Positions 4,811 to 33,096 of a stretch of 64,000 nucleotides of DNA are shown one piece after another. The notes beneath the pieces are model-generated. The model was given only the letters and a program-made list of their open reading frames with translations, was not told where the DNA came from and did no database searches. Source of the stretch: Cyanobium sp. CZS48M (GTDB taxonomy: Bacteria > Cyanobacteriota > Cyanobacteriia > PCC-6307 > Cyanobiaceae); contig JAUCZK010000010.1 of assembly GCA_030373145.1 (NCBI GenBank), forward strand, positions 3,679 to 67,678, written 5' to 3'. The position numbers and the translations under genes are program-made. Within the stretch, counting starts at the first letter, position 1. The number at the start of each line of letters is the position of its first letter.

Positions 4811-4820
4811 ACAACGGACC

Positions 4821-7166: not shown

Positions 7167-7208
7167 GCCCACGGCACGTACTCTTCCCCCAGTGCGACAG
7201 ATCAGCGG

Positions 7209-7898: not shown

Positions 7899-7940
7899 CG
7901 ATCTGGCGGAGGATCAGGGGGAGCTGTCGATCCACTCACC

Positions 7941-9479: not shown

Positions 9480-9487
9480 CCCGGGCC

Positions 9488-10150: not shown

Positions 10151-10218
10151 AGGGCCCATCAGCTGCAGGGTGGGGCGGCGACCCTAGGGGATAGAAGGCC
10201 ACCAACCAGCCTTTCGGC

Positions 10219-10722: not shown

Positions 10723-10740
10723 TCAGTGGATCGGCGGGGC

Positions 10741-10992
10741 CTAGGGGGCGGGTTTGGCGGCAGGCGGGCTGGTGGTGTACTCAACGCTGCAGCGGTAACG
10801 GAAGCTGTCACCGGGCATCACGATCTGCTGGCAGCGGCTGCCGGTCACCGTGGCGCCCTGGGGAACCTGGCCGGTGGCCGCTTGAAGGGCACTATCCTGG
10901 TCGATGATCGAATCGGCCGTGACGGAGCCAGCGCTGGCGGGAAGCGCTCCCAGCAGCAGGACGGCCGCGAGGCCGCCGAGGGATCGAAGCAT
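10741..10992 (-). CDS. small secreted hypothetical protein
   Basis: Signal peptide; AGSVTADSIIDQDSALQAA...C...C. Confidence 0.6.
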   Translation of the reverse strand: MLRSLGGLAAVLLLGALPASAGSVTADSIIDQDSALQAATGQVPQGATVTGSRCQQIVMPGDSFRYRCSVEYTTSPPAAKPAP

Positions 10993-11036
10993 GGTGGAGA
11001 TCATGGGGATCCGAGGAGAGTGGAATCGGGACCGCC

Positions 11037-11930: not shown

Positions 11931-11991
11931 CACCAAGACTCGACTCACCAACTGAATTGAACTGGAATCAACATAGTCCAAAGGCCCCAAA

Positions 11992-13056: not shown

Positions 13057-13134
13057 CAGCAGCGATTTGGCTGGGGGCATTCTGTGCCGAACCGGGCCAG
13101 TAGGCTCTGCCGGTCCGGAGAGAATTCCGCAGGG

Positions 13135-14331
13135 ATGGAGATCGCCGGTTTCGCCACCTTCAATATCGCCATCGTGGTGCTGGCGATCGGGCGCTGGTTA
13201 AATCAGCGCTTCACGATGCTGCGCACGTTCAACATTCCCGAGCCCGTGAGCAGCGGCCTGCTGGTGTGCCTGCTGCTGGCCCTGGTGCATGCCGTGAGCG
13301 GGCTGGAGATCAACTTCAACCTGGACACCCGCGACTTTCTTCTCCTCTATTTTTTCGCCACGATCGGCCTCAACGCCGACGTCAAGACCCTGCTGGCCGG
13401 TGGCCGGCCGCTTCTGGTGCTGGTGGTCCTGACCGTGGCCTTCATGATCCTGCAGAACCTGACCGGCGTCGGGGTCGCCAGCCTGCTGGGGTTCTCCCCC
13501 CTCAACGGACTTCTGGGGGGTTCCGTGTCATTGCTGGGGGGCCACGGCACCGCCATCGCCTGGGCACCCCGATTCGCGCGGGAGCACGGCATCGGCAACG
13601 CCATGGAGATCGGCGTGGCCTGCGCCACCCTCGGCCTGGTGCTGGCTTCGCTGATGGGAGGGCCCGTGGCCAGGTTTCTGATCCGCCGCCATCAGCTGCG
13701 CTCCGGTCCCGCCGACGGGCCCACGGAGCGGGCCGACACCCCCACCGATCCCCGGCCGGTGGATTTCTTCAGCCTGCTGCGCACCCTGTTCTGGCTGAAC
13801 ATGAGCCTGGCGCTGGGGGAAGGGCTGCATGAGGCCATTAAGGCCATGGGCAGCAACCTGCCCCTGTTCGTCTGCGCCCTGTTCAGCGCGATCCTGCTCA
13901 CCAACACGGTGCCGCGCCTGATCCCCCGGCTGATCTGGCCGGCCCAGACCCGTTCGCTCGCGCTGATCTCGGAGATCTCCCTGGGGATCTTCCTGACGAT
14001 GTCACTGATGAGCCTGCAGCTCTGGACCATCACCGAGCTGGCCGGAGCGATCCTGATCATCCTGTCCGCCCAGTTCCTGATGGCGGTGCTGTTCTCCGTG
14101 ATGGTGGTGTTCCCCGCCATGGGCGGGGGCTACGACGCCGCGGTGATCTGCTCAGGCTTCGGCGGGTTCTCCCTGGGGGCCACCCCCACCGCCATGGCGA
14201 ACATGGCGGCGGTGACACACCGCTACGGTCCGTCACCCCAGGCCTTCATCATCGTTCCGCTGGTGGCGGGTTTCTTTGTGGACATCAGCAACGCCGTGGT
14301 GATCCAGCGCTTCCTCAACTGGCTGGGCTGA
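13135..14331 (+). CDS. gltS: sodium/glutamate symporter
   Basis: NIPEPV, SLLGGHGTAIAW, LGATPTAMANM motifs. Confidence 0.9.
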   Translation: MEIAGFATFNIAIVVLAIGRWLNQRFTMLRTFNIPEPVSSGLLVCLLLALVHAVSGLEINFNLDTRDFLLLYFFATIGLNADVKTLLAGGRPLLVLVVLTVAFMILQNLTGVGVASLLGFSPLNGLLGGSVSLLGGHGTAIAWAPRFAREHGIGNAMEIGVACATLGLVLASLMGGPVARFLIRRHQLRSGPADGPTERADTPTDPRPVDFFSLLRTLFWLNMSLALGEGLHEAIKAMGSNLPLFVCALFSAILLTNTVPRLIPRLIWPAQTRSLALISEISLGIFLTMSLMSLQLWTITELAGAILIILSAQFLMAVLFSVMVVFPAMGGGYDAAVICSGFGGFSLGATPTAMANMAAVTHRYGPSPQAFIIVPLVAGFFVDISNAVVIQRFLNWLG

Positions 14332-14345
14332 AGCCGGTAAGGTGA

Positions 14346-15374
<1,029 letters not shown>

Positions 15375-15389
15375 GGGGCTGGCGGATGC

Positions 15390-15638
15390 GTGGATCTGCG
15401 GTTGATTGAGCCCTGCAGGTCCCCTGCACCGCACCCCTCGATGGAGTTCCCCACCCTTTTGGTCAGGCTCGTGAGCCGCCCGCCCGGCCATGACCGGGCC
15501 CTGGTGCTGCGCAACCGCCAGGGCCGTGTCACCGGGGGGTACCACAACGCCAGGCTGCTCGACCCGGAGCAGACCAAGGCGCTGATGGCCGACCATCACT
15601 GGGATGTGGTGCCCGGCATGGACGCCAGACGGGGCTGA
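15390..15638 (+). CDS. small hypothetical protein
   Basis: Follows gap closely; alternative start at 15441. Confidence 0.45.
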   Translation: MDLRLIEPCRSPAPHPSMEFPTLLVRLVSRPPGHDRALVLRNRQGRVTGGYHNARLLDPEQTKALMADHHWDVVPGMDARRG

Positions 15639-15642
15639 TGCC

Positions 15643-18384
15643 TCAGCTCTGCAGCGAGCGCATCAGGCTCTGGAGGTGGCGGCTCTCCAATTGCAGCACC
15701 CGCCGGGCAAAATCGGGGTCACGCTCCAGCACCGCATCGAAGCCATCCACGGGCACCGCCAGCAGCCGTGTCCCCTCCTCTTGGGCCACGATCGTGTTCT
15801 CCGAGGCGCTGTGGCTGAGCACCTCCAGCTCATCGAGCACCTGGCCGGGGAGCAACGGCTCCAGGCGAAGGCCGTCGGCCTCCTGGTAGCGAACCGCCGC
15901 CCGCCCCGCGATCAGCAGCAGCAATTCGCGGCAGGTGTCACCGGTTTCGGTGATCAGCTCACCGGCAGCGAAGTGGCGCAGCTCCGAGGCCGCCGCCAGC
16001 TGCTCCAGGCTGGCGTGGCTGGTGCCGCGGAAAAAATCGCTGGCCGCCAGGTGGACACGCATCTCCAGCTCCGGCAGTTCGTGCAGCTCGGGCACGGGCG
16101 ACGTGGGGTGACCCACCGCCTGGAGCACCTCCCCCAGGGGTACGGGCGCGGCGGCGGCATCGAGGCCACTGGCCAGGAGGCGGGCGCGGTTGGGATCGAG
16201 CCGCGCCAGCAGGAACAGGGCGGCGGCCCGCAGCAGCGGTGTGCGCTCCTGCAGCAGATCCTCCAGGCTGGAGAGGGTGTCGGCGAGGGGACAGGCCGGC
16301 GGCTCATCCGCGGCGCCCGGCAGCGGCTGCAACAGCAGCGCAAGCACCGGCCCCGAGAGTTGCCGCTTCCAGTTCCCTTCCAGCAACAGCTGGTGCAGAT
16401 TCAGCGGCCGCAGGGCCTGGAGCCTGGCGGCCCACTCCAGGGCCTGGGGCTGTTCTTTCAGCTCAGAGAGCACGCCGAGCATGGCGCGCACGCTCAGGTC
16501 CTGACGCTGGAGCAGGGACTCGGCGAGCAGGTCACGCACCAGCGGCTGATCGGCCAGCTGTGGCTGCAGCAGGTTCAGGCGTGAACGCCGCAGTTCGGAG
16601 AAGCGGGGCAGCATCGCCTCCAGCTTCTGCAGGGCCGAGGTGCTGGGGGCCAGACCCTCAAGCACGCTGGCCGCTTCATCCGGGCTGATCGAGTACTGGT
16701 TGCGCAGGCTGCGGATCACCTCGGGATCGGCCTGACGGCTCTTGAGCAGCATCAGCCGTTCCAGGGATTTGGTGTAGCCGCTGAGGCGCACCTGATCCTC
16801 GAGGCTGCGGCGACCGTCGGGATCCAGCAGATCGGGGTTCTCCACCCCCACCGATTCGAGCAGCAGGCTGTGTTCCTCATCGCTGATGCCGATCTCCCGC
16901 CGCATCTGGCTGAGCACTTCCAGGCTGCTGGAGGCATTGGCGTAGCCCTCCTGCAGGGCCTCCCGCACCACCTCCTTGTAGACCTGCTGGCGCTTCTCAC
17001 GGGTGAAGCCCGGCAGCACCTTGGCGAGCACATAGACCTCATGGGGACTGAGGTCGGCCAGCTGGCGGCCATCGAGGTAGCGCCCCACATCAAGATCGAG
17101 CTTCTCCAGCTGGCGGCGGAAGCGGCTGGCCAGGTTCTCGCGCTGATGCAGGTCGGAGCTGCGCTCCCAGGAGCGGTAGAGCCAGAGGCTGCTCACCGAC
17201 ACCACCACAGCATCGAAGAGGGTCTGTACCCAGGCGGGCAGCAGCAGCAGCAGCGGCCTGCCGGAGAAGAGAAAGAAGAAGTTGAACACCAGAAACGTGG
17301 CCAGCACGAAGATCTGATGCCGTCCGAAGCGGCCGCTGCGCTCGATCCAGCGGCCCAACACCACCCCCAGCCAGGTGAACAGTCCCAGCACCAGCGGCAC
17401 CGCCACCAGCCGGGGCACATTCAGGCTCTGGCCGAACAGAAACAGCCCGGGCCGCAACAACAGCGACAACTGATCGCTCTGGCGTAGCCAGGCACCGGAG
17501 AAGTAATAGTCCCAGCTGCCGGCATAGAGGTAGTAGTAGAGGAAATAGCCAACCACCAGGCCCACATAGGCATAGCGCTCGAAGCTGAACTCGCGGCTGC
17601 TCAATCGCGTCCAGTACATGCGCTCGGCGTCGATGTCGATGCAGGGCTGCTGGCAGGCCACGCAGGCGCTCTGTTCACTGCCGTCGGGCAAGACGGTGCG
17701 GCACATCGACTGGGTGATCGGTGTCTCGCTCAGGTGGGCCTTGCTGCCGAGCAGGCCCGCCGGGGTGGAGTAGGCGCTCTGCACCGGCGCCATCGGGCAG
17801 AAGTACTGGCACCAGGCCTTGCCGCCATAGAGCCAGCCCACGCTGATGGCGGCGGCAATGGTGAACAGCATCCAGCCGGCCAGCACCAGCCGGTCGGCAT
17901 TGAAGAAGAGGATCCGCCCGCAGAGGCCCACGAACAACCAGCCGAACTGGAGCTGGGAGTAGTGACGAGCCAGCCAGGAGTCATCGGGCACCTTGGCCAG
18001 CTGCTGGCGGCGTTCGCCGGTGCGAGGGTTGACCTTGGTGCGCTGGCGCTGCTGGCCCAGGGCCCGGGGGATCTGGGAGAGGAAGGAGAGGGGGCAGATG
18101 CGGCGCCAGAGCTCGTGGCCAAACACCAGGAGGATCAGCACCGCCGCCGGCACCACGGCGCCCCAGAACAGCGTGGTGCCCAGGGGATAAGGGGCCTCGC
18201 TGAGGCAGGCGCCCTGCACCTGAACGCAGGTGTCGGGCAGGCGCAGGGGGCTCCAGGGGTGATCCGCCTCGGTGAAGCGGGGCGTCCAGGGGTCGTAGAA
18301 GAGCGAGGCGATGATCAGCAGCCAGGCGCTGGTGAGAATCCAGCGGATGCCATGCATCCGTGCCTCAGACACCTCAAAGGCCAT
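15643..18384 (-). CDS. membrane 4Fe-4S-binding (NapH/NosR-like) protein with C-terminal cyclic-nucleotide-binding domain
   Basis: WRRICP, WCQYFCP, CVACQQPC; multiple TM segments; C-terminal LITETGD...LLLIAGRA...GQVLDELEVL...ENTIVA. Confidence 0.8.
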   Translation of the reverse strand: MAFEVSEARMHGIRWILTSAWLLIIASLFYDPWTPRFTEADHPWSPLRLPDTCVQVQGACLSEAPYPLGTTLFWGAVVPAAVLILLVFGHELWRRICPLSFLSQIPRALGQQRQRTKVNPRTGERRQQLAKVPDDSWLARHYSQLQFGWLFVGLCGRILFFNADRLVLAGWMLFTIAAAISVGWLYGGKAWCQYFCPMAPVQSAYSTPAGLLGSKAHLSETPITQSMCRTVLPDGSEQSACVACQQPCIDIDAERMYWTRLSSREFSFERYAYVGLVVGYFLYYYLYAGSWDYYFSGAWLRQSDQLSLLLRPGLFLFGQSLNVPRLVAVPLVLGLFTWLGVVLGRWIERSGRFGRHQIFVLATFLVFNFFFLFSGRPLLLLLPAWVQTLFDAVVVSVSSLWLYRSWERSSDLHQRENLASRFRRQLEKLDLDVGRYLDGRQLADLSPHEVYVLAKVLPGFTREKRQQVYKEVVREALQEGYANASSSLEVLSQMRREIGISDEEHSLLLESVGVENPDLLDPDGRRSLEDQVRLSGYTKSLERLMLLKSRQADPEVIRSLRNQYSISPDEAASVLEGLAPSTSALQKLEAMLPRFSELRRSRLNLLQPQLADQPLVRDLLAESLLQRQDLSVRAMLGVLSELKEQPQALEWAARLQALRPLNLHQLLLEGNWKRQLSGPVLALLLQPLPGAADEPPACPLADTLSSLEDLLQERTPLLRAAALFLLARLDPNRARLLASGLDAAAAPVPLGEVLQAVGHPTSPVPELHELPELEMRVHLAASDFFRGTSHASLEQLAAASELRHFAAGELITETGDTCRELLLLIAGRAAVRYQEADGLRLEPLLPGQVLDELEVLSHSASENTIVAQEEGTRLLAVPVDGFDAVLERDPDFARRVLQLESRHLQSLMRSLQS

Positions 18385-20139: not shown

Positions 20140-20484
20140 ATGACCAAGGCCAGTCTCATCGTTCGTCATCCCCCGGCGGCACTGGAGCAGAGCCTGGAGC
20201 GCCTGGGCCGGAACATCCGCACGGCCCGGCTGCGGCGCCGCTGGCGACTGGAGGATGTGGCCGAGCGCATGGGGGTGACGCGCTTCACGGTGGCCGATGT
20301 GGAGAGAGGCAAGCCCGGCACCTCCGTGGCGGCCTATCTGGGGGCGCTCTGGGTCCTGGGGTTACTGGATCAGATGGCCGAGGTGGCCGATCCGGATCGC
20401 GATGAGGAGGGCAAGGCCCTGGAGGGGGCCCGCAGCCCGAAGCAGGCACCTCGCCGGCACCGCCGTCTCGATGACGACTTCTGA
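20140..20484 (+). CDS. XRE-family HTH protein, HipB-like antitoxin
   Basis: LGRNIRTARLRRRWRLEDVAERMGVTRFTVADVERG; 2 bp upstream of a HipA-like gene. Confidence 0.85.
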   Translation: MTKASLIVRHPPAALEQSLERLGRNIRTARLRRRWRLEDVAERMGVTRFTVADVERGKPGTSVAAYLGALWVLGLLDQMAEVADPDRDEEGKALEGARSPKQAPRRHRRLDDDF

Positions 20485-20486
20485 CC

Positions 20487-21764
20487 ATGGCGGCTGACCA
20501 GGCGTGTTTTGTCTATGTGGTGCTGCCTGGCCAAACCCAGTTCGTCACGGCCGGGCGGTTTGAGCTCCAGGAGGATCGCCAGGGCCGCATGGTGGGAGCC
20601 TTCATCTACGGCCGTCGCTATCGGGAGCGACCTGAGGCTGTCGAACTCGACCCGGTGGAGCTGAGGCTGGGCGCACGCCCGTTTGAGACCGGCCGCATGG
20701 GGGGCTTCTTCGGGGCCCTGCGTGATGCGCTGCCGGATTTCTGGGGCCGGCAGGTGATCGCCCGCCACGGCGGATTGGGCGAGCCCAGCGATTTCGATCT
20801 GCTGCTGCTGGGGCCGGATGATCGCGCTGGCGCGCTTGGCTTCGGCCGCAACGTCGAACCTCCGGCACCGCAGCGGCGCTTCAACCGCACGCTCGATCTG
20901 GAGCGGATCCAACAGGCGGCGAACGCGATCCTCACGGATCAATCTCACCTGGCGGGCTCGGCCCACGATCAGGTGGACGAGTTGCTGCAGGGGGCCGGCA
21001 CCTCCATGGGCGGAGCCCGGCCGAAAACCACCGTGGAGCATGACGGTGCCCTCTGGCTCGCCAAGTTCCCGGCACCCAGCGACCGATGGAATCAGCCGAA
21101 GGTGGAGCACGCGCTGCTGCTGCTGGCGCGGCAGTGCGGGCTGCAGGTGGCGGAAAGCCGGCTCACCCGGGTGGGGGAGGCCGATGTGCTGCTGGTGAAG
21201 CGCTTCGATCGCGATTGGAGCGGTGATGGATACCGGCGTCACCGGATGGTGAGCGCCCTCACCCTGCTGCAGGCGGAGGACAGCACCACGGACCGGCAGA
21301 AGTGGTCGTATCTGCTGCTGGCCGATGATCTTCGGCGGGTCAGCGCCACTCCGGCTGAGGATCTGCGGGAACTGTTCACCAGTGTCTGCTTCAACGCGGC
21401 GGTGTCGAACCTCGACGATCACCCCCGCAACCACGCCCTGCTGGCCCGCTCCCGCCAGTGGCGGCTCAGCCCCGCCTACGACCTCACCCACGGCACGATG
21501 CGCACGGAAACCCGCCGTGATCTGGCAATGGTCTGTGGCCTGGAGGGCCGCAGGCCCAGCCGCTGGGCCAATCGGGACACGATCGTGGCCGGCGCTGGCC
21601 GGTTCCTTCTGGAGAAGGAGGAAGCGGAAGCGATCGCGGCCCGGGTGATCACCACCGTGGCAGCGGACTGGGAGGGTCTGCTGCGCAGCGTTGGCGTCAG
21701 TCAGGCCGACTGCGACTTCGTTCGGGGCGCTTTCGTGTATGGAGGGGTGGAATTGCCCGACTGA
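20487..21764 (+). CDS. HipA-family kinase toxin
   Basis: GTSMGGARPK, LAKFP, DDHPRNH, LSPAYD; N-terminal couple_hipA-like region. Confidence 0.9.
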   Translation: MAADQACFVYVVLPGQTQFVTAGRFELQEDRQGRMVGAFIYGRRYRERPEAVELDPVELRLGARPFETGRMGGFFGALRDALPDFWGRQVIARHGGLGEPSDFDLLLLGPDDRAGALGFGRNVEPPAPQRRFNRTLDLERIQQAANAILTDQSHLAGSAHDQVDELLQGAGTSMGGARPKTTVEHDGALWLAKFPAPSDRWNQPKVEHALLLLARQCGLQVAESRLTRVGEADVLLVKRFDRDWSGDGYRRHRMVSALTLLQAEDSTTDRQKWSYLLLADDLRRVSATPAEDLRELFTSVCFNAAVSNLDDHPRNHALLARSRQWRLSPAYDLTHGTMRTETRRDLAMVCGLEGRRPSRWANRDTIVAGAGRFLLEKEEAEAIAARVITTVAADWEGLLRSVGVSQADCDFVRGAFVYGGVELPD

Positions 21765-21821: not shown

Positions 21822-23636
21822 ATGCCCGATCAGGAGCAACTGGACGACTTCCTCGAAGCCCTGGAAACAGCCGCCAGCCCCGCCAGAAACCCTGCCCTGC
21901 GGGAGGTGCTCGGCTGGGATGAACCCCTCTACGAGGAGGTGAAAGCGGAACTGGTGGCCAAGGGGATCGTGGTGCGCGGCCGGGGCCGCAGCGACAGCGT
22001 GTCGCTGGTGGGGGCAGAGCCTGTGGCGAAAGCAGTGCGACCGGCCAGCAAGGGCCGCAAGGCCAAGGCATCAAGCAACGGCACCGCCAACCTCGGCTTC
22101 GAGGCCAAGCTCTGGCTCACGGCCGACAAGCTGCGCAACAACATGGACGCGGCCGAGTACAAGCACGTGGTGCTCGGCCTGATCTTCCTCAAGTACATCT
22201 CCGACAGCTTCGAAGAGCACCGCGCCAAGCTGCTGGCCGGCGTTGGCGACTACGAAGGTGCCAACCCGGAAGACCCCGACGAATACAAGGCCGAGAACGT
22301 GTTCTGGGTGCCGGCCGAGGCCCGCTGGAGCCAGCTGCAGGCCAACGCCAAGCAACCCACGATCGGCAAGCTGGTGGACGACGCCATGGTGGCGATCGAG
22401 CGCGACAACCCGCGCCTCAAGGGCGTGCTGCCGAAGGACTACGCCCGTCCGGGCCTCGACAAGCAGCGGCTGGGGGAGCTGATCGATGTGATCGCCACGA
22501 TCGAACTCACCGCCGCCAGCGAGGGGGAGGTGACCCACCGCTCCGTGGATCTGCTCGGCCGCGTGTACGAATACTTCCTCACCCGCTTTGCGTCGGCCGA
22601 GGGCAAGAACGGCGGCCAGTTCTACACGCCGAGTTGTGTGGTGCGCTGCCTGGTGGAGATGTTGGAGCCCTACAAGGGCCGCATCTACGACCCCTGCTGC
22701 GGCTCCGGCGGCATGTTCGTGCAGAGCGAGAAGTTCGTGGAAAGCCACGGCGGCAAGCTGGGCGACATCTCCATCTACGGCCAGGAGAGCAACGCCACCA
22801 CCCGCCGCCTGGCGGTGATGAACCTGGCCCTGCGCGGCATTGAGGCCGACTTCGGCGCCGAGCACGCCGACAGCTTCCGCCGCGATCTGCATCCGGATCT
22901 GCGGGCCGATGTCGTGCTCGCCAACCCGCCCTTCAACGACTCCGACTGGTTCCGCCGTGACGACGACGTGCGCTGGCAGTACGGCGTGCCGCCGAAGGGC
23001 AACGCCAACTTCGCCTGGGTGCAGCACTTCATCCACCACCTGGCGCCGCAGGGCATGGCCGGCTTCGTGCTCGCCAATGGCAGCATGAGCTCCAATCAGA
23101 GCGGCGAAGGCGAGATCCGCCGCGCCCTGATCGAAGCTGACCTGGTGGACTGCATGGTGGCCCTGCCCGGCCAGCTCTTCTACAGCACGCAGATCCCGGT
23201 GTGCCTGTGGTTCCTGGCGAAGAGCAAGGCTGCCGACGGCCAGCGGGGCTTCCGCGATCGGCGCGGGCACACATTGTTCATCGATGCCCGCAAGCTCGGC
23301 AGCCTGATCGATCGGGTGCATCGGGAGCTGCTGGAGGCCGATCTGGAGAAGATCAGCGGCACCTATCACCGCTGGCGGGGTGCCGACGGGGCGGAAAGTT
23401 ACGACGATGTGCCGGGGTTCTGCAAATCCGCCACCACCGCCGAGATCGCTGCCCATGGCCACGTGCTCACGCCGGGGCGGTATGTGGGGGCGGAGGAGGT
23501 GGAAGACGACGGCGAGCCTTTTGAGGAGAAGATGCCACGGCTGGTGGCGGAGCTTGAAAGCCAGTTCGCTGAATCGGCCAGACTGGAAGCGGCGATCAGG
23601 GCGAATCTGAAGAACATGGGCTTCCCGCTTCGATGA
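21822..23636 (+). CDS. hsdM: type I restriction-modification methyltransferase subunit M, with N-terminal extension
   Basis: [27 protein letters not shown]. Confidence 0.95.
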
Positions 23637-25120
23637 AGCGCAGCTTCTCCATCTTCGTGAGCAGCGTCCAAAAGGAGTTGGCGGCAGAACGCCGCGCCGT
23701 GAAGGACTACATCACGCGCGATCCGATGCTGGGACGGTTCTTTCCGGATGTTTTCCTGTTCGAAGATCTTCCAGCCCGGGACCAACGCCCCGACGGGCGA
23801 TACATCGGAGAAATCGACCGACGAGACATTTATCTTGGGATTTTCGGCCTGACCTACGGGGCAAAGGATCAGGATGGCTTGTCTCCCACCGCTCGGGAGT
23901 TCCAGCAGGCCACTCACGAAGCCCCCAACCGACCGGAACGGATCATCTTCATCAAGGGCCTCGACGACAGCGATCGTGAGCCAGACATGTCGAAACTGAT
24001 TGCCGATGCGGGTGCACAGCTGACTCGTCGCCGCTTTATCGATATCCCCAGTCTTTTGCGTGAGGTTTACAACAGCCTCGTCGATTTCCTGGATGAGCGT
24101 CACCTCCTGCGTACGCCGCCCTTCGACTCCGCCCCCTGTCCCGGTGCAACCTTGAACGACATCTCGGCGGCGAACGTCCGGGAGTTTCTCCGTCTTGCGG
24201 AAGAGAATGGACGCTTCCAGCCTGTCGGCCCCCGCACACCGGCGCATGTGCTGCGCCACTTCCATCTTCTCGCCGATGGACAACCCACTCAGGCGGGCAT
24301 CTTCCTGTTTGGCGACAGACCGGCACACTTTCTCCGCCAGACCCAGCTTCAGTGCCTCCAGTTCGAGGGAACCGAGAAACGCAAGCCGATCGCCGACCAA
24401 CGGGCCTTCGAAGGCTCGGTCTTCGAAACGATCGATGCCGCCCGCCAATTCGTCCTTGCCAAGCTCACGACGCGGGTCGGGCTTGCTGCCGCTGGCGCTT
24501 CAGCTCCGGTCCAACCCGAAATCCCGACATTCGTGATTCGCGAGGCCATCGTCAACGCCGTGGCCCATCGTGATTACACCAGCGATGGCTTCGTCCAGGT
24601 GATCGTGTTCAGCGACCGCGTGGAGATCTGGAATCCCGGCCGTCTTCCTGCAGGCCTCAGCGAAGACGACCTCCGCCACCCCCACGGCCCCCTGCCACGC
24701 AACCCGCTCCTGGCTGAACCGCTTTACCGTGCCGGTTATGCCGAAAAGGCCGGTTCCGGCACCACCGACATGATTGACGCCTGCCGCGACGTCGGGGTTC
24801 CTGAGCCCACCTTCAAGCAGCACGGCCCCCATTTCGTCGTCACCCTATGGCGCGACTGGCTCACCGACGACGTGCTGGCCGGGCTTGGCCTCAATGAGCG
24901 TCAGTTGAAAGCACTCCCCGCCATCCGGCGGCAGTCGCGATTTGCCAACAGCGACTATCAGGCGACCACGGGCACCAGCCGCGCAACCGCCAAGCGCGAT
25001 CTCGAGGACCTGATTGCCAAGGGACTGATCGTGCCGAAAGGGAGCGGCCGCGGCGCCTACTACGAGTTTGCCCGCAAACGGCCCAACAATGGCTCCAATG
25101 GCCCACCGAGGCAGGCGTGA
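23633..25120 (+). CDS. DUF4062 + HATPase_c_4-type ATP-binding + winged-helix protein
   Basis: [15 protein letters not shown]; [23 protein letters not shown]...EKAGSG; C-terminal [15 protein letters not shown]; ATGA overlap with hsdM. Confidence 0.8.
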
Positions 25121-25151
25121 TCAATGGCTCACCAATGGCTCAAATGGCCCA
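25081..25151 (+). repeat. imperfect 25-bp direct repeat (25081-25105 / 25127-25151) with internal AATGGC(T/C)C units
   Basis: GCCCAACAATGGCTCCAATGGCCCA vs GCTCACCAATGGCTCAAATGGCCCA, 22/25 identical. Confidence 0.75.
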
Positions 25152-25504
25152 GGCCAGCCACCGGGGCGTGGGACCACCAGCCCTGCCTCGTCGCCAAACT
25201 GCACGCCCAGCTCACCGGGCCTGCGAAACTGGAGCTGGTGCGTTCGGTGTTTCGTCTGCATCCCGAGGTGATGAGCGCCACGCTGTTCGGCTCACGCGCC
25301 AAGGGCACCCACAGCGACCGCTCAGATGTGGACCTGGTGGTGGCTGGCGACATCGAGCCGCTCCGCGCCGAGGCGATCGCGGCCGAGTTGGAGGAGCTGC
25401 CGTTGCCGTATCGGTTTGACGTGCAATCCCTGGCCCACATTCAGCACCGCCCACTGCTGGAGCACATCCAGCGGGTGGGAATTCTCATCTATCCGGCGCC
25501 ATGA
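25124..25504 (+). CDS. minimal nucleotidyltransferase (MNT) domain protein
   Basis: LFGSRAKG...SDVDL (GS-x10-DxD), RFDVQ; no adjacent HEPN or substrate-binding partner. Confidence 0.85.
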   Translation: MAHQWLKWPRPATGAWDHQPCLVAKLHAQLTGPAKLELVRSVFRLHPEVMSATLFGSRAKGTHSDRSDVDLVVAGDIEPLRAEAIAAELEELPLPYRFDVQSLAHIQHRPLLEHIQRVGILIYPAP

Positions 25505-25620
25505 CGGTGATTCCCGCGATACCGAGGTTTGCCTGTGAACGGCATGGTCTGTTCGCCGGGGGAGAGAAACTTGGACAGGCCATCCAAGTCAACCTGAGGG
25601 GGCTGGGTTATGGAGGTTGA
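25501..25620 (+). pseudogene. vestigial C-terminal tail of a second hsdM, overlapping the MNT stop and the hsdS start
   Basis: MTVIPAIPRFACERHGLFAGGEKLGQAIQVNLRGLGYGG* aligns without gaps to the intact HsdM tail [30 protein letters not shown] (11/30 identical). Confidence 0.7.
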
Positions 25621-26896
25621 TTGGGAGGAAACAACGCTCGGCGAATGTGCAGCGTGGTTGTCTGGCGGAACGCCGTTCAAGGGCAACGAGGCGTTCTGGT
25701 CTGGGCCCATTCCGTGGGTCAGTGCAAAAGACATGAAGTCTTTCCGCCTTCACGACGCTGAGGACCACATCTCACCGCTCGCAGTCGGCAATGGCGGAAA
25801 GCTCGTCCCTGCTGGAACCATTCTCCTCCTGGTTCGCGGAATGACGCTGCACAACGACGTGCCGATTTGCATGGTCACGCGGGAGATGGCTTTCAATCAG
25901 GACATCAAAGCGCTCCGGCCAGCGAAGAATGTCGATGGTGCGTTTCTCGCCTACTGGTTGCTCGCCAATAAGCCTGAGCTCTTGGCGTCGGTGGACCATG
26001 CAGGACATGGAACCGGCAGGCTTGTCACCGACACGTTGAAGGAAAAGCACGTCCTTCTCCCACCCCTCGCCGAGCAAAAAGCCATCGCGGCGGTGCTTGG
26101 GGCGTTGGACGACAAGATCGAGTTGAACCGGCGGATGAACGCGACGCTGGAGGCGATGGCGCGGGCGCTGTTCCAGAGCTGGTTTGTGGATTTTGATCCT
26201 GTGCGGGCCAAGCTGGATGGGCGGCAGCCTGTTGGACTTGATCTAAGCACCGCCGCCCTTTTCCCCGGGCACTTCGCACATAGCGAACACGACATGCTGC
26301 CCGTCGGCTGGCGTCTCGCCGCCATAGAAGAAGTCTGCGCCATCAACGCATGGACGCTCGGCAAGAACGACGACTTGGAGACGCTCGAATACGTCGAGAT
26401 TTCCGAAGTGAATCGCGGCAACATTTCCAACATCTCGACCTACCAACGCGGCGAAGAACCGAGTCGAGCCCGACGGCGCCTGCGACACGGCGACACCGCT
26501 CTTTCCACGGTCCGCCCCGACCGAGGCTCTTACGTCCTCGTGCTAAATCCGCCAGAGAACAGGGTTGCGTCCACCGGCTTCGCCGTGCTGACGCCGACCA
26601 AGGTCCCGTGGTCATTTCTCCACGCCGCGCTGACGCAGCCGGAGGTCTCCGACCACCTCGGCCAAATGGCAGATGGCGGAGCCTATCCCGCTGTGCGTCC
26701 TGAAGTCATCGGAGCCATGCAGGTCGCACTGCCAAACGAGCCAGAGATTCTCGAAGCCTTCCACCGCACCTGCGCTCCGCTCTTTGAAAAAGCCGAAGCC
26801 AACCGCAGCCAATCCCGCAACCTCGCCACCCTGCGCGACACGCTGCTGCCGAAGCTGCTGAACGGGGAATTGAGCGTGGCGGATCTGGGGAATTGA
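25610..26896 (+). CDS. hsdS: type I R-M specificity subunit S
   Basis: Two TRDs; LPPLAEQKAIAAVLGALDDKIELNRRMNATLEAMARALFQSWF central region; LATLRDTLLPKLL tail. Confidence 0.95.
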   Translation: MEVDWEETTLGECAAWLSGGTPFKGNEAFWSGPIPWVSAKDMKSFRLHDAEDHISPLAVGNGGKLVPAGTILLLVRGMTLHNDVPICMVTREMAFNQDIKALRPAKNVDGAFLAYWLLANKPELLASVDHAGHGTGRLVTDTLKEKHVLLPPLAEQKAIAAVLGALDDKIELNRRMNATLEAMARALFQSWFVDFDPVRAKLDGRQPVGLDLSTAALFPGHFAHSEHDMLPVGWRLAAIEEVCAINAWTLGKNDDLETLEYVEISEVNRGNISNISTYQRGEEPSRARRRLRHGDTALSTVRPDRGSYVLVLNPPENRVASTGFAVLTPTKVPWSFLHAALTQPEVSDHLGQMADGGAYPAVRPEVIGAMQVALPNEPEILEAFHRTCAPLFEKAEANRSQSRNLATLRDTLLPKLLNGELSVADLGN

Positions 26897-26903
26897 ACTC
26901 ACC

Positions 26904-27890
26904 ATGGCTGGAACCAGAAAGCGCAGCAGAAGGGTTCACTCGGTTTCGGACGAACTGATTCACAAGTCACGTGAGGCGGCTCTCGCAGCCGTTCAAATCT
27001 TCAATAACCCACAGATCACCTTCAAATCGGAGATGTTTATCGTCCTGATGAACATCGCCTGGACCTACATGCTCCACGCCTATTACCGGAAGAACGGCAT
27101 AGAGTATCGATACTATGCGCTCAAGGGAAAGATACGGCGCTTCGACCGCACGGCAAAGGGTGCTTACAAATATTGGGAACTGGAACGGTGCCTTAACGAG
27201 AAGCTGAACCCGGTAGACCGTGAAGCGGCGACCAACCTTCGATTTCTCATCGGCGTTCGCCACGAAATTGAGCATCAGATGACGACAAGAATCGACGCAT
27301 CCTTCAGCGCAAAATTCCAGGCATGCTGCCTGAATTACAACGACCACATCATCAGGTTCTTCGGCGACGAGCACGCAATCGACAAGCACCTCTCGTTCAG
27401 CTTACAGTTCTCATCGATCACGAGAGACCAAGCTGCACAGCTGCAAGCGCAATCATCGCTTCCGCCACATATCAAGTCGTTCGTCGAAGGATTTGAGTCA
27501 ACATTGACTGATGAGGAGTTTAATAGTCCAAAGTTTGCCTACCGAGTTCTCTTCGTAGCGAAGACGGCAAACCGCAAGGGCCAGGCTGACGAGGTGATTG
27601 AGTTTGTGAAAGCCGATTCGGAGTTGGCGAGAGAAGTTAACCAGAAATACGCCATTATAAAAGAAACCGAACGCCTGAAACTCCGGCCGAAGACGATCGT
27701 GGACACGATGAACACGGAAGGATTCCCGAGGTACAAAATTCACCATCACACTCTGCTCTGGCAGGATAAGGATGCGAAGAATCCTGCCAAGGGTCTCGGC
27801 ACCCATGTTGAAGGGAGTTGGTTTTGGTATGAGCCCTGGCTTGAGCAGGTCAGGCACTACTGCAAGGCGAACGCTGGGCGTTTTAAATAA
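26904..27890 (+). CDS. DUF3644 domain protein (HEPN-like, RxxxxH)
   Basis: KSREAALAAVQIFN...FIVLMNIAWTYMLHAYY; VRHEIEH; lower GC than the flanks. Confidence 0.8.
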   Translation: MAGTRKRSRRVHSVSDELIHKSREAALAAVQIFNNPQITFKSEMFIVLMNIAWTYMLHAYYRKNGIEYRYYALKGKIRRFDRTAKGAYKYWELERCLNEKLNPVDREAATNLRFLIGVRHEIEHQMTTRIDASFSAKFQACCLNYNDHIIRFFGDEHAIDKHLSFSLQFSSITRDQAAQLQAQSSLPPHIKSFVEGFESTLTDEEFNSPKFAYRVLFVAKTANRKGQADEVIEFVKADSELAREVNQKYAIIKETERLKLRPKTIVDTMNTEGFPRYKIHHHTLLWQDKDAKNPAKGLGTHVEGSWFWYEPWLEQVRHYCKANAGRFK

Positions 27891-28528
27891 CGGTGCGTAC
27901 CAATGCTTTCATGGGTGTAAAGTGGCGAGCAAATATCATTCCAAGGAAGAACCGGCGTTTAAAATCGCCTGCGTGAGAGGTAGTGAAAATTGTTTTGGTC
28001 ACGTGATGGTCGCTGACAAGAAGCTAAATCATATCAATGGATACTCCCGCATTGCATACATTTAAGCGATCATGACGGCAATCCTTTGGGTGTCGGGCAG
28101 TGTGGCTGAGCGCGCGGACTACATTCCCCGATTAAGCGGTATCGAGCTTCCGAGGTTCGCATCATTGCCTGCCACCAGCTCAGGAATGGCAAGATGTGGT
28201 ATCGGCTAGGGCTTATCCCTCCTTCTTATCTTTCGCGAGCTTTTCGGCTAGGGACCACTTAACTATGACCAGACAGAAGGGAAGAACTTGGCAAGGGTTT
28301 GATTTATTCGCTCTCACCAGAGTTATTGTGATTTGGATAACGTCGCACGAGCATTGACGAATTCCTCATCAATTACGCCGCCCCCGGATGGTTCCAGGAG
28401 CAAGTTTATGCCATGCTTCCCAGCACCCAGATCGCACCCGGGGATTTCACCGCAGGAGTTGAGGTATTGGGCGATGGGTGCTGGAGGGGAGATCGTGCGA
28501 GGCATCCTGCAGCTGAATGCTGCCACGC

Positions 28529-28927
28529 TCAGGAACCTGCCGGCAAAATCAGCCTTGGCGCGAGATTGAGCTGCCGGATGCGGCGCCCGAAGCCGCGATC
28601 ATCAAACAACGACATGGCCTCGCAGCTTCAGCAGCTGGCATGGTGCAGCGCATCGGCCACGGCCTGCTCCAAGGCTGGCCGGTCTTCCGCCGAGACGCCG
28701 GGATGGGCCAGCAGGTGGTCGAACACCTGCAGCACCTGCTCCACCGGGAAGCCGTAGTACCCCCGCAGCACCGTCTCCAGCTCCAGGGCCACCGTTTTGG
28801 CCAGGAACAGCGGCTGGCCGGATTCGATCAGATCGCGGGCGGCCCGGCGCTGGCGTTCCGTGGCCGCATCGGCTTCGTCCTCCGCCACGAAGTAGCGGGC
28901 CAGCACATTGGTGTCCAAACCAATCAC
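28529..28927 (-). pseudogene. vapC: PIN-domain VapC toxin, inactivated
   Basis: IGLDTNVLARY...ADALHHASC then in-frame TGA (28628-28630); reading continues SCEAMSLFDDRGFGRR...LILPAGS*. Confidence 0.8.
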
Positions 28928-29172
28928 GGGCGCAGCAGGCTGGCGGGATCGAAGTCCGCCGGCACGGCTGGCCTGCTGGTCTTCAGCAATCCGAACCCGC
29001 TCTCCGGCAGTGGCTGCTCCGGCTTCCAGGGGCGCAGCTCGATGTGATCCCCCACCATCGCGAACGTCACGCGGCTGCCCCTGGCCAGCCCGAACTGCTG
29101 CCGCAGCGCCTTGGGGATGGTCACCTGCCCCTTGCTGGTGATCGAGCTGGTGACGGCTTCGGCAGACTCCAT
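28924..29172 (-). CDS. AbrB/MazE/SpoVT-family antitoxin (VapB)
   Basis: SSITSKGQVTIPKALRQQFGLARGSRV; GTGA overlap with vapC. Confidence 0.9.
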   Translation of the reverse strand: MESAEAVTSSITSKGQVTIPKALRQQFGLARGSRVTFAMVGDHIELRPWKPEQPLPESGFGLLKTSRPAVPADFDPASLLRP

Positions 29173-29197
29173 CGAAACTCACTCCCAGGGCTGGGTA

Positions 29198-29208
29198 TTA
29201 CCTGGTAA
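29198..29208. promoter_or_regulatory. palindromic operator upstream of vapB
   Basis: TTACC-T-GGTAA, about 26 bp upstream of the vapB start; typical of AbrB-type autoregulation. Confidence 0.45.
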
Positions 29209-29325
29209 GGCTAGTCGGGAGAAGCGCGCACGGGCTCGCGGCTGGATGGCGTGGTTCATGCGCATCAGCGCGGCGACGAGCCAGGGCTGATGACATCAGG
29301 CACACAGCCTCGCTAAGCTGGCCTA

Positions 29326-29619
29326 ATGAAGCCCTTCGTGTGGAGCGCCGCGAAAAATGCTCAACTCCTCGCCGAACGGCAGCTGTGCTTCGAGGCGGTG
29401 GTGGTGGCGATTGAGACGGGCGATCTGCTCGACGTGCAGGAACATCCCAACCAGCAGCGCTACCCAGGGCAGCGCATCCTCGTGGTGCGGCTCCATGGAT
29501 ACATCCACCTGGTGCCGATGATCGAAACCGAAGAGCATCTGTTTCTGAAAACGATCATCCCCAGCCGCAAGGCCAACCGCTTGTACACACCATCTTCGCC
29601 CGCTGGGCCTGAATCATGA
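29326..29619 (+). CDS. BrnT-like toxin
   Basis: FVWSAAKNAQL...CFEAVV...HPNQQRYPGQRILVV...LKTIIPSRKA. Confidence 0.8.
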   Translation: MKPFVWSAAKNAQLLAERQLCFEAVVVAIETGDLLDVQEHPNQQRYPGQRILVVRLHGYIHLVPMIETEEHLFLKTIIPSRKANRLYTPSSPAGPES

Positions 29620-29915
29620 CCATCCCCTCTTTGCCTGAACTGGAGCCTGAAGAGCAGCAGCTTCTCGCTGATTTCGAGGCCGGTGAACTGCGCAGTCTGG
29701 CCACGCCGGCTCTGCTGAGCCAACTCCAGGAAGCAGCGAAGGCAACGGGCTTAAAAGACCAGCGAATCAACATCCGCCTTTCCAGCGGTGACCTCCAGGC
29801 CATCCGCACCCGCGCCCTGCAGGAAGGCATTCCCTATCAAACGCTGATCAGCAGCGTGCTTCACAAGTACGTGAGCGGCACTTTGCCGGAACGAACTGAG
29901 GTGGGGCGAGATTGA
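29616..29915 (+). CDS. BrnA/CopG-like RHH antitoxin
   Basis: [14 protein letters not shown]...[15 protein letters not shown]; ATGA overlap with the toxin. Confidence 0.82.
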
Positions 29916-29979
29916 GCTGGCGGCCTCTCACCATGGCAGCTCGACAACAAGTGCAAAATCTGCACTGGTTGGATCCGAC

Positions 29980-32900
29980 ATGACCCTCAACGAAGCCCTC
30001 ATCGAAGAGGCGGCCCTGGGCTGGTTCCGGGAGCTGGGCTACACCGTGCTTCCCGGCCCCCAGCTGGCCCCCGGGGAACCAGCGGCGGAACGGGATTCCT
30101 TCAGTGATGTGCTTTTGGTGGGCCGCCTGCGCCAGGCCATCCGCCAGCTCAACCCGGCCATTCCAGACGACGCCCGTGAGGAGGCCCTGCGCAAGCTGTT
30201 GCGGCTGGCCACACCCTTGCTCGTGCAGACCAACCGCGCCTTCCACCGCCTGCTGCGGGAGGGCGTGCCGGTGGAATATCCCCGGCCCGATGGCAGCATC
30301 GCCGGCGACCACGTGCGGCTGGTCGACTTCGCAGCCGTTGCGGCCAACGACTGGCTGGTGGTGAACCAGTTCGCCGTGAGCGACGGTCAGTACAACCGCC
30401 GGCCGGACCTGGTGGTGTTCCTCAACGGTCTGCCCCTCGGCCTGATCGAGCTCAAGAATGCCGCCGCTGAAGGCGCCACCATCTGGAGCGCCTACGCCCA
30501 GCTGCAGACCTACAAAGCCGAGATTCCCGGGCTCCTTCAATACAACGCCGCCCTGGTGGTGAGCGATGGGCTGCAGGCGCGCATCGGCTCGATCACCGCC
30601 AACCAGGAGTGGTACAAGCTCTGGCGCAGCATTGAGGGCGAGGCCGACGCCCCCGCCACGGCCCTGGAGCTGGAAACGCTGATCCGTGGCGTGTTCGCAC
30701 CGCAGCGCTTCCTCGATCTGCTGCAGCACTTCATCGTCTTCGAGGAAGATGCCGATACAGGCGCCCTCCACAAGATCATCGCCGGCTACCACCAGTTCCA
30801 TGCCGTGAACGCGGCGGTGGAGGAAACCGTGCGCGCCAGCGGCATGGGTCCGGCAGCCAGGAGCCAGGGCGGCCGCCCGGGCGACCGCCGCGCCGGGGTG
30901 GTGTGGCACACCCAGGGCAGCGGCAAGAGCTTCTCGATGCTCTTCTATGCCGCCCGCATCGTGCGCCATCCGGCGATGGCCAACCCCACCCTGGTGGTGC
31001 TCACCGATCGCAACGATCTCGACGACCAGCTCTTCGGCCAGTTCCAGCGCTGCGCCGACCTCCTCGGCCAGACGCCCATGCAAGCCGCCAATCGCGAACA
31101 CCTGCGCGAGCTGCTCAACCGCGCCAGCGGCGGCGTGGTGTTCACCACCATCCAGAAGTTCATGCCGGAAAAGGGCGCAGCGATGCCCGAGCTGAGCGCC
31201 CGCGCGAACATCGTGGTGATCGCCGATGAAGCGCACCGCAGCCAGTACGGCTTCGGCGGCAAGGTGAACGAGAAAACCGGAGAGATGTCTTACGGCTTCG
31301 CCAGCAACCTGCGTGAGGCCCTGCCCAACGCCTCCTTCATCGGCTTCACCGGCACGCCGATCGAGCAGACCGACGCCAACACCCGCGCCGTGTTCGGCGA
31401 TTACATCTCCATCTACGACATCCAGCGCGCCGTTGCCGACAAGGCCACCGTGCCGATCTACTACGAGAGCCGCATCTCCAAACTCTCCCTGAACGCCGCC
31501 GCGCTGCCCGGTCTGGACGCCGAATTTGAGGAGATCACCGAAGGCGAGGAGTTCACGCAAAAGGAAAAGCTGAAAACCAAGTGGGCCGCCCTCGAAGCGC
31601 TGGTGGGCGATCCCAAGCGGCTCGCCCTGGTTGCCGCTGATCTCGTGGCGCACGTGGAGAAACGCCTGGAGGCCATGGACGGCAAGGCGATGCTCGTTTG
31701 CATGAGCCGCCGCATCTGCGTCGATCTCTACAACGCCCTGATCCAGCTGCGGCCCGAGTGGGCGCAAGACACGCTCAAAGTGGTGATGACCGGCAGTGCC
31801 GACGACGGCCCCGACTGGCAGCCCCACATCCGCAGCAAGGAGGCCCGCCGCCAGCTCGCCAATCGCTTCAAAGACGCCAACGACCCCTTCAAGATCGTGA
31901 TCGTGCGCGACATGTGGCTCACCGGCTTCGATGCGCCCTGCCTGCACACCATGTATGCCGACAAGCCGATGCAGGGCCACGGCCTGATGCAGGCCATCGC
32001 CCGCGTCAACCGCGTGTTCCGCGATAAACCGGGCGGCCTGGTGGTGGATTACCTCGGCCTCGCCGATCAGCTCAAGCGGGCACTGGCCAGCTACACCGAA
32101 AGCGGCGGCCAGGGCGACCCCACCTTCGACCCCGCCCAGGCCATCGCCGTGATGCTCGAAAAGCACGGCATCGCCTCTGATCTGTTGCACGGTTTTGACT
32201 GGTCGAACTGGACCAGCGGCACACCCAGCGAGCGCCTGCAGCTCCTTCCCGCCGGCCAGGAGCACATCCTGCTGCAGGAGAACGGCAAGCAGCGCTGGCT
32301 GCAGGTGGTGGCCGAACTCTCCCGCGCCTTCGCCCTCTGCGCCGCCAGCGACGAGGCCACCGCCATGCGCGACGACGTGAGCTTCTTCCAGGCACTGCAG
32401 GCCGCCCTCTCCAAGCAAACCAGCAGCACCAGCAAAACGCCCGAGCAGATCGATGCCGCCATCCGCCAGCTGGTGAGCAAGGCCATCACCACCGATGGCC
32501 AGGTGATTGATGTCTTCACCGCCGCCGGCCTGCCCAAACCCGACATCTCGATCCTCAGTGATCAGTTCCTCGCTGAGGTGCGTGGCCTCAAGCACAAGAA
32601 TGTGGCCGCCGAGCTGCTGGAGAAGTTGCTCAAGGATGAACTCAAGGTGCGTTCCAAGCGCAACCTCGTGCAGAGCCAGGTGTTCTCCGAAAAGCTCAAG
32701 ACCACCCTCAACGCCTACCACAACCGCGCCATCTCCACGGCGCAGGTGATCGAGGAGCTGATCGCCCTCGCCAAAGACCTCGATGCCGCCACCAAACGCG
32801 GCGAATCCCTTGGCCTCAGCAACGACGAAGTCGCCTTCTACGACGCCCTTGCCGCCAACGACAGCGCCGTGGCGGCCATGGGCGACGCCAAGCTCAAACT

Positions 32901-33096
32901 GATCGCTGCCGAACTGATCACCCAGGTGAAGAAGAGCGTGTCGATCGACTGGACCCTGCGCGAGAGTGCCCGCGCCAAAATCCGCGTGATGGTGAAACGC
33001 ATCCTCAACAAATACGGCTATCCCCCCGATCTGCAGGAAGAGGCGGTGAAAACCGTGCTCGCCCAGGCGGAGCTGCTCTGCTCCGCCTGGGTGTGA
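29980..33096 (+). CDS. hsdR: type I restriction endonuclease subunit R
   Basis: [51 protein letters not shown]; DUF3387-type C-terminus. Confidence 0.96.

Follow-up and report, generated by a model that had tools for sequence, protein, structure and literature searches.

Two junctions of a type I restriction–modification operon in Cyanobium sp. CZS48M as probable exchange slots for defence and toxin–antitoxin cassettes

In a 64,000-nucleotide (nt) stretch of contig JAUCZK010000010.1 of Cyanobium sp. CZS48M (the window, whose positions are used throughout), we found a type I restriction–modification (R-M) operon whose own genes are apparently intact and whose two inter-subunit junctions are both occupied by additional genes. 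With a probability of about 0.8, these junctions are swap-prone slots for separately mobile defence and toxin–antitoxin (TA) cassettes. The locus is a mosaic of known module types, a stack rather than a new three-part system. Genes were called from the list of open reading frames (ORFs) and from scans against Pfam, PADLOC and NCBIfam. These analyses confirmed the gene order given in the initial annotation, i.e. hsdM, DUF4062/HATPase/helix-turn-helix (HTH), minimal nucleotidyltransferase (MNT), the remnant of an hsdM tail, hsdS, DUF3644, vapBC, brnTA and hsdR, and they support its description of a type I R-M locus with nested cargo. As it had also pointed out, the genes from hsdM to DUF3644 share one strand and overlap or nearly touch. 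Thus, ATGA overlaps join hsdM to the gene of a 495-residue DUF4062/GHKL/winged-helix protein (23633-23636) and the MNT ORF to a 39-codon ORF (25501-25504), the 495-residue protein gene and the MNT ORF are separated by 3 nt, the 39-codon ORF and hsdS overlap by 11 nt, and the gap between hsdS and the DUF3644 gene is 7 nt. Only vapBC lies on the - strand, all other genes of the locus being on the + strand.

HsdM, HsdS and HsdR are all present and full length according to their profile matches. HsdM (21822-23636) matches Pfam N6_Mtase (E = 5e-104) and HsdM_N as well as PADLOC MTase_I (E = 9e-218); HsdS (25610-26896) matches Methylase_S and, over model positions 1-437 of 446, PADLOC Specificity_I (E = 6e-81); HsdR (29980-33096) has HSDR_N, SWI2_SNF2, T1R_D3-like and T1RH-like_C domains, a PADLOC REase_I match over residues 2-1033 and a TIGR00348 match (E = 1e-174). 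The hsd genes recur at ~90% DNA identity in five sister loci, the comparison of which reveals how the contents of the two slots have been exchanged. Slot A, between hsdM and hsdS, has the same arrangement in the sister loci L001-L003 as in the window. In L178 it holds the gene of a 139-residue NTase_sub_bind protein (HI0074-like HEPN; PF08780, E = 4e-33), an intact 101-codon MNT gene and the 39-codon ORF, followed by hsdS, and in L184 an MNT gene and a second MNT/HepT pair. Slot B, between hsdS and hsdR, contains genes for a small membrane protein, a KwaB-like protein (Kiwa), a DUF4357 protein and an MNT/HEPN pair in L002, and in L178 a 318-codon gene without an assigned family, an AAA_21 ATPase gene and a DUF4276 gene. 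The breakpoints were located by blastn at 23624/23625, 25218/25219, 26883/26884 and 28507/28508. The hsdM gene, whose ATG start at 21822 is the one used by its L178 orthologue, is 90% identical to the latter at the DNA level up to 23624. A 1.6-kb DUF4062 cassette (23625-25218) then stands where L178 has the HEPN gene and the first ~7 MNT codons. From 25219 to 26266 the DNA is again close to that of L178 (94% identity), and hsdS is itself a mosaic, as its second target-recognition domain differs and its conserved 3' end is widely shared. The block that follows (26884-28507), with the DUF3644 gene and a stub of hsdR, is specific to the window and missing from L178 and L179.

In slot A, the exchanges have left two scars. 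The MNT ORF (25124-25504; Pfam Polbeta, E = 4e-14; NCBIfam MntA below its cut-off) is MntA/HI0073-like, and the core homologous to its intact relatives starts only at 25219, its first ~32 codons, which show poor conservation, overlying a repeat array that is described below. As the cassette replaces the HEPN gene and the first ~7 MNT codons, the window MNT is best read as an orphan antitoxin gene, 5'-truncated by ~7 codons, whose HEPN partner has been lost. It belongs to the same class as the nucleotidyltransferases of MntA/HepT and HI0073/HI0074 pairs, and sister genomes retain an adjacent NTase_sub_bind HEPN partner in the same slot, whereas in the window this partner has been replaced and the MNT gene has lost its own start. 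Between the window and L002, 88 of 94 core residues are identical, which suggests that MNT still is under constraint, and 24 of 32 in the N-terminal extension (counted on the translations). Elsewhere in the same genome there is a second NTase_sub_bind (HI0074-like) gene (G000:C27:20961-21323), with one TAG codon inside the match.

The second scar is the 39-codon ORF (25501-25620). The orthologous stretch of L002 and L003 matches residues 578-608 of the window HsdM with 57-68% identity in tblastn searches, and positions 25537-25620 show ~79% DNA identity to the 3' ends of hsdM in the DUF3644-bearing operons L015, L016 and L026. The tail of an hsdM gene mentioned in the initial annotation is thus real, and the ORF most readily represents the leftover 3' tail of a second hsdM allele, which bridges MNT and hsdS. 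As it is found also in L178, which has no DUF4062 gene, the tail must be older than the DUF4062 insertion. We had considered that the ORF might be a relic of the HEPN partner of MNT, which we rejected, since the ORF is an hsdM tail and the partner sat upstream of MNT. Similarly, a 39-codon ORF in front of hsdS in L092 is unsupported as a second hsdM tail, as it overlies the word arrays of that locus.

Slot B also bears the marks of its assembly. The G+C content drops from ~0.67 to 0.50 over 27000-28500, in the region of the DUF3644 gene (26904-27890). Downstream of this gene, a start-less pseudogene fragment (28350-28490) corresponds to the 5' end of hsdR: 19 of its 47 residues are identical to residues 2-48 of the window HsdR (pairwise E = 2e-9), and in tblastx comparisons it matches the start of the L002 hsdR. 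That the block 26884-28507 carries both the stub and DUF3644 indicates that it was imported from a canonical hsdS-DUF3644-hsdR operon. Next to it is the vapBC pair, which the window shares with L178 and L179. The AbrB/MazE-type antitoxin gene vapB is intact (28924-29172, - strand; AbrB-family domain TIGR01439, E = 3e-12). In vapC (28529-28935, - strand), comparison with the intact L178 and L179 orthologues revealed an Arg-to-TGA change at 28628-28630 and an eight-codon deletion, and the truncated product gave no match in a Pfam scan. This gene is accordingly read as a pseudogene, which deprives the pair of the intact PIN toxin that a VapBC system requires. Between vapB and hsdR, a brnT-like gene (29326-29619) overlaps a brnA/CopG-like gene (29616-29915) by 4 nt, and the two probably form a TA pair. 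The genes announced as vapBC and brnTA are present, but vapC has decayed and the BrnT_toxin (E = 3e-4; 21.4 bits for a cut-off of 34.5) and BrnA_antitoxin (18.5 bits for 26.1) matches remain below the curated cut-offs; the CopG_antitoxin match is above its own (29.6 bits for 28).

Each of the two embedded families, DUF3644 and DUF4062-GHKL, is associated with restriction operons independently of the other. DUF3644 is the EC042_2821 HEPN family, found in R-M operons (Anantharaman et al. 2013, PMC3710099). The 328-residue window protein matches PF12358 (E = 1e-57; 195 bits for a cut-off of 27.6) and, over residues 6-324, the PADLOC candidate family PDC-S19 (PDLC04948, E = 5e-159). It has the Rx4-6H motif of HEPN proteins (R119-H124, RHEIEH), and in 37 sequences drawn from many phyla the segment RHEIEHQMT does not vary. 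Relatives were found in at least 385 species genomes; the closest (87% amino acid identity) comes from a metagenome-assembled genome of Verrucomicrobia. For its genomic contexts, 80 species loci were kept. An hsd gene is present in 56 of them, with none in the fetched flanks of the other 24; hsdS lies upstream on the same strand in 51, ending ≤150 nt away in 33, and DUF3644 sits between hsdS and hsdR in 41, hsdR starting ≤150 nt downstream in 20. The parallel drawn initially with PrrC is thus apt for this gene. Neither a DUF4062 N-terminal domain nor an MNT of the window's type was found in any of these 80 loci. Matches to the DUF4062 family in L015, L050, L055-L057, L059 and L079 were set aside, as they cover only the middle and C-terminal GHKL and winged-helix parts and include no DUF4062 head. 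In L015, L050, L055 and L079, such headless relatives share hsd operons with DUF3644, which suggests that this type of body is itself common cargo in hsd slots.

By analogy with its relatives, the DUF3644 protein is likely to be a latent HEPN RNase. What links it to PDC-S19, itself only a candidate system, is a match over the full length, an Rx4H motif that does not vary and a usual location in R-M operons. HEC-08 is a DUF3644 HEPN protein with zinc-finger-like domains, whose protection against phages requires the histidine of the Rx4-6H motif (10.1101/2024.01.29.577857). In contrast with HEC-08, the C-terminal 128 residues of the window protein have no Cys-rich motif and are modelled as a helix-helix-hairpin-helix module. 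Ishtar (ist1/ist2) is an anti-plasmid system with a DUF3644/DUF4145 HEPN protein that clears plasmid RP4. The window protein shares the HEPN part of these stand-alone Acinetobacter genes, with which it was compared by description only. The C-terminal domain of Ishtar is described as having five to seven strands and three helices, and since residues 212-256 of the C-terminal region of our model have pLDDT values below 50, the strand count is unreliable for this comparison. With the anticodon nucleases PrrC and RloC, in which an ABC-type ATPase domain is joined to a HEPN nuclease, only the position between hsdS and hsdR is shared, as Pfam detects no ATPase domain in the DUF3644 protein. Overall, the AF2 model (pLDDT 73) consists of helices and ends in a small helix-hairpin domain. 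Foldseek returned no match for it at E ≤ 0.001, and the HEPN chains 2hsb, 8xdj and 1ufb came up at E values of 0.5-1.7.

The other main cargo gene (23633-25120) codes for a 495-residue protein made up of three parts, a DUF4062/NIR TIR-like head (residues 1 to ~130), a helical linker and GHKL ATPase domain (~130-410) and an ArsR-like winged helix (~415-480). The corresponding Pfam matches are DUF4062 (PF13271, E = 9e-17; 61.5 bits for a cut-off of 24.7), HATPase_c_4 (PF13749, E = 2e-21) and the DIP2311-like_C winged helix-turn-helix (PF22168). The best Foldseek match of its AF2 model (pLDDT 82) is DIP2311 (3LMM, E = 2e-17), whose GHKL and HTH parts align over residues 292-403 and 423-482. More weakly, the N-terminal domain matches the TIR domains of SARM1 and IL-18Rbeta, and the C-terminus resembles ArsR/SmtB winged helices. 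The family profile also matches the GHKL part of 3LMM and the DUF4062 domain of KpSwz (PDB 10wc, E = 8e-7), over residues 4-153 and not beyond. KpSwz and Eva01 are single-gene DUF4062 NADase abortive-infection defences; in KpSwz, Glu97 is the proven catalytic residue and the AUX region binds the portal (10.64898/2026.05.01.722283, 10.64898/2026.06.25.731849). With these Swarozyc and Evangelion (Eva01-04) systems, the window family has in common an N-terminal DUF4062 TIR-like head followed by an auxiliary C-terminal region, a single-gene organisation, horizontal mobility and an association with defence islands. It differs from Swarozyc in that the auxiliary part is a DIP2311-like GHKL ATPase with an ArsR-like winged helix rather than the portal-binding AUX of KpSwz, in the Ala found at the position of Glu97, and in the private word arrays that surround its stop codon. 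In Schlafen-ATPase proteins, the GHKL domain drives ATP-dependent tetramerisation, and modules are exchanged with type I R-M systems (PMC13056530, 10.64898/2026.05.29.728809). DIP2311 and the pSlfn-HisKinase-HTH/Schlatpase-HTH proteins have the same HATPase_c_4 and C-terminal HTH body and are likewise swapped with type I R-M modules, but in the window protein DUF4062 takes the place of the Schlafen/AlbA_2 nuclease head, there being no PF04326 match. From its profile and structure matches, the protein can be described as a Schlafen-ATPase-HTH-type body with a predicted DUF4062 NADase-type head.

This DUF4062-GHKL-winged-helix family is very large, spans phyla and is habitually embedded in restriction systems. 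Databases contain more than 4,200 homologues, mostly at ~55% identity across phyla, and relatives are encoded at no fewer than 600 species loci. Among 82 non-redundant loci used for the context counts, 40 have hsd genes, in at least six types of slot, and the fetched flanks of the other 42 show none. On the same strand, the closest hsd genes upstream and downstream are hsdS and hsdR in eight loci, hsdM and hsdS in seven, and hsdR and hsdS in two, while six loci have hsdR downstream and none upstream. Other contexts include a PLD-SNF2 helicase with an Eco57I-type methylase, an MmeI-like gene and a GIY-YIG/NOV_C gene. DUF3644 occurs in none of the 82 loci, and MNT only in the picocyanobacterial one. 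Such varied surroundings identify the gene as a putative mobile single-gene cassette. In L008, L009 and L094 (~4700-15700), it is wedged between the genes of a 1093-residue PLD-SNF2 helicase and a 1284-1350-residue Eco57I/TaqI_C-type methyltransferase, which is followed by that of a 662-residue protein, an arrangement that represents a recurrent restriction-like system. Within the genus, two of 11 genomes have the gene, one of them with an internal stop. In L002 (Synechococcus sp. UW140), the orthologue (8001-9485) is split by an in-frame stop after ~115 codons, and L001 has lost hsdS together with the greater part of hsdR; both observations suggest that the island is decaying in sister strains. 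A check against PADLOC v2, which identified DUF3644 as PDC-S19, found no model for the DUF4062-GHKL family, only the middle part of which matches Argonaute-associated models.

The least ordinary feature of the locus is found at the stop codon of this gene, where two arrays of short words flank the end of the ORF. Array 1 (25077-25105, + strand), recognised by reading the sequence, lies within the last codons and consists of AACGGCCCA, ACAATGGCTCC and AATGGCCCA, of 9-11 nt each. Array 2 (25122-25151, + strand; TRF period 11, 2.7 copies) begins 2 nt past the stop codon, with CAATGGCTCA, CCAATGGCTCA and again AATGGCCCA. The motif AATGGCYCA has four matches in the 64-kb window, all of them at 25097-25151, for 1.4 expected over the whole window. 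Similar arrays surround the stop codon of the homologous gene in L011, L092-L094, L098-L104, L107, L109 and L111. They are triplets of 9-11-nt words that are the same at the 3' end of the gene and just past the stop, for example AAACCCGTCAT, AAACAGGACAT and AAAGGGGCCA(T). Among the 22 non-redundant loci that represent the winged-helix subfamily, 16 have a TRF array with a period of 9-12 between -70 and +200 relative to the stop codon, for a background of 0.028 per equal stretch. The core of the word differs between loci and covaries with the recognition segment of the winged helix: recognition-segment identity is 0.53 in pairs that share a word vs 0.42, a value reached by none of 2000 label permutations, and body identity is no higher in those pairs (0.58 vs 0.61). 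The clearest case is that of the window and L109, which share their word and differ little in the recognition segment (12 residues) at only 50% body identity. In a more distant subfamily with another C-terminal domain, tandem words past the stop, such as five copies of AGCAGCCTAAG and repeats of TATAAGATGCAG, were found in 12 of 57 loci (e.g. L132, L158 and L163).

As the right breakpoint (25218) is beyond array 2, the arrays move with the cassette. The winged helix of the 495-residue protein most probably binds them, and they can be read as its own operator or docking site. It is tempting to go one step further and propose, tentatively, that they serve as a private DNA address. The winged helix would bind both triplets, and the NADase-type effector would stay docked on this cis platform, or repressed by it, until displaced upon infection; as it precedes hsdS, the platform could in addition control expression of the downstream restriction genes. 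We did not find this reading described in the literature, of which one DUF4062 (NIR) preprint (10.64898/2026.09.04.749371) was not covered.

The initial annotation viewed the DUF4062-GHKL-winged-helix, MNT and DUF3644 genes as a candidate composite anti-phage system, i.e. one co-evolved system nested in the R-M operon, and it named the co-occurrence of these genes in hsd loci as a test of that idea. Their single strand and minimal or overlapping intergenic distances agree with such a proposal, as does the retention of the hsdM-DUF4062-MNT-tail arrangement in three sister genomes; however, those genomes are more than 90% identical at the DNA level and hence do not count as independent evidence. 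Outside close relatives, the genes co-occurred in none of the 162 loci examined (80 for DUF3644 and 82 for DUF4062-GHKL). Furthermore, L002 has DUF4062 and MNT without DUF3644, and L178-L184 have MNT without a DUF4062 gene. The counts and the differing cargo of the sister loci show that the cargo assorts independently and that the trio is not one system, which makes a composite very improbable. It had also been noted that the trio was not recognisable as a described system. This holds for the combination but not for its parts, since two of the three genes belong to catalogued or characterised families, PDC-S19/HEC-08/Ishtar for one and Swarozyc/Evangelion for the other. The same distribution bears on the idea of a split TA pair, in which AMPylation by the orphan MNT would neutralise the HEPN protein DUF3644, encoded on the other side of hsdS, and thereby make the loss of hsdS lethal. 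MNT proteins do neutralise HEPN toxins in this manner in MntA/HepT systems, and DUF3644 is the sole protein of the operon with an intact Rx4H motif. Nevertheless, the natural partner of MNT is the NTase_sub_bind (HI0074-like) gene directly upstream of it in L178, MNT is present without DUF3644 in L002 and L178-L184, none of the 80 DUF3644 loci has an MNT of the window's type, and DUF3644 arrived as a separate low-GC block. On the grounds of the L178 partner, the breakpoints and the occurrence of MNT without DUF3644, we rejected MNT as the antitoxin of DUF3644, and a split pair appears highly implausible.

A guard function is less improbable, although we still consider it rather unlikely. Like PrrC in EcoprrI, DUF3644, the DUF4062-GHKL-winged-helix protein or both would be linked physically or functionally to the type I enzyme, whose HsdM, HsdS and HsdR subunits would keep them latent until a phage anti-restriction protein inactivates it. 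Independent acquisition of the genes is compatible with this hypothesis. DUF3644 occupies the position of prrC in the 41 species loci mentioned above, among which hsdS ends ≤150 nt upstream in 33 and hsdR starts ≤150 nt downstream in 20, and no antitoxin-like gene is needed between hsdS, DUF3644 and hsdR. PrrC itself is named as found almost solely inside type I R-M systems (10.1101/2024.01.29.577857). As for the DUF4062-GHKL gene, hsd genes accompany it in the 40 loci counted above, and in the window, L092, L008/L094 and L093 the stop codon of the restriction-type gene before it and its own start codon overlap. However, the fetched flanks lack hsd genes in 24 DUF3644 loci and 42 DUF4062-GHKL loci, the DUF4062 gene resides in many different slots, including in contexts that are not type I, and HEC-08, Ishtar, KpSwz and Eva01 are each active as a single gene that needs no R-M partner.

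We therefore favour the reading of the locus as an R-M operon with stacked, exchangeable modules, and the breakpoints and scars show the following history. Slot A first held a TA pair made of an HI0074-type HEPN toxin and MNT, of which the toxin gene and the initial MNT codons then gave way to the DUF4062-GHKL-winged-helix cassette with its two word arrays. In slot B, the low-GC block with DUF3644 and the 5' stub of hsdR came in from an operon of the canonical hsdM-hsdS-DUF3644-hsdR type and landed beside an older vapBC pair, since decayed, and the brnTA-like pair. The modules might then act in layers and not as one machine: the R-M enzyme would cut unmodified DNA, the DUF3644 protein might serve as a latent HEPN RNase, and the DUF4062 protein might be an abortive-infection effector, the ATPase and winged helix of which would sense or regulate while the head depletes NAD+. 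The GHKL domain might function as an ATP-driven oligomerisation switch and the winged helix might read the arrays. These biochemical activities, and any dependence on R-M, are transposed from relatives. Type I R-M, BREX and DISARM operons are already known to harbour embedded defence genes (Payne et al., 10.1101/2024.01.29.577857). Compared with those embedded defences and with PrrC in EcoprrI, the additional genes are likewise nested between hsd subunits, with DUF3644 in the position of prrC, but here two slots are filled together, the exchange is legible from scars, and there is no ABC-ATPase/PrrC-type protein.

Several points weigh against this reading. Co-translation, and a degree of functional reliance on the R-M complex, would fit the close packing of the genes between hsdM and DUF3644. 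The two embedded families are also strongly overrepresented in hsd operons, and independent stacking accounts for this through the dynamics of the slots only. In addition, in the printed alignment KpSwz Glu97 corresponds to Ala87 of the window protein, a position held by Glu in 37 of 45 relatives and by Ala or His in the clade of the window, which makes the NADase competence of this copy uncertain; Glu89, two residues further, is invariant in all 45. Finally, the segment that codes for the recognition helix adjoins the arrays, so that co-transfer is possible, and the covariation of winged helix and words could in part reflect the joint transfer of two adjacent DNA segments rather than binding.

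The host genome measures 2.77 Mb, and its closest public relatives are picocyanobacteria of the Cyanobium/Synechococcus type. Directly upstream of hsdM and on the same strand, a hipB-like HTH gene (HTH_31) and hipA (HipA_C, E = 1e-47) occupy 20140-21764. This pair is common to the window and L002 and absent from L178 and L179, which suggests that the variable island reaches beyond the hsd operon on its upstream side. A scan for promoter and terminator consensus sequences gave hits at the level of shuffled sequences, such a scan being uninformative for a cyanobacterium. No known RNA family was detected between 19000 and 35000 at E ≤ 0.1, and a search for longer direct or inverted repeats flanking the cassettes returned chance-level matches only.

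The locus is a clear illustration from nature of the way in which type I R-M operons gather and exchange second-line defences, as the slot junctions, the type of donor of one block and the displaced toxin gene are all legible from the sequence. It also serves as a warning that tight packing of genes is not proof of a single system, since the three cargo genes have three histories. The arrays at the stop codon, which covary with a DNA-binding helix, set the DUF4062-GHKL family apart. If they are an operator or docking site, they would offer a simple handle on the silencing of a potentially lethal NADase-type effector.

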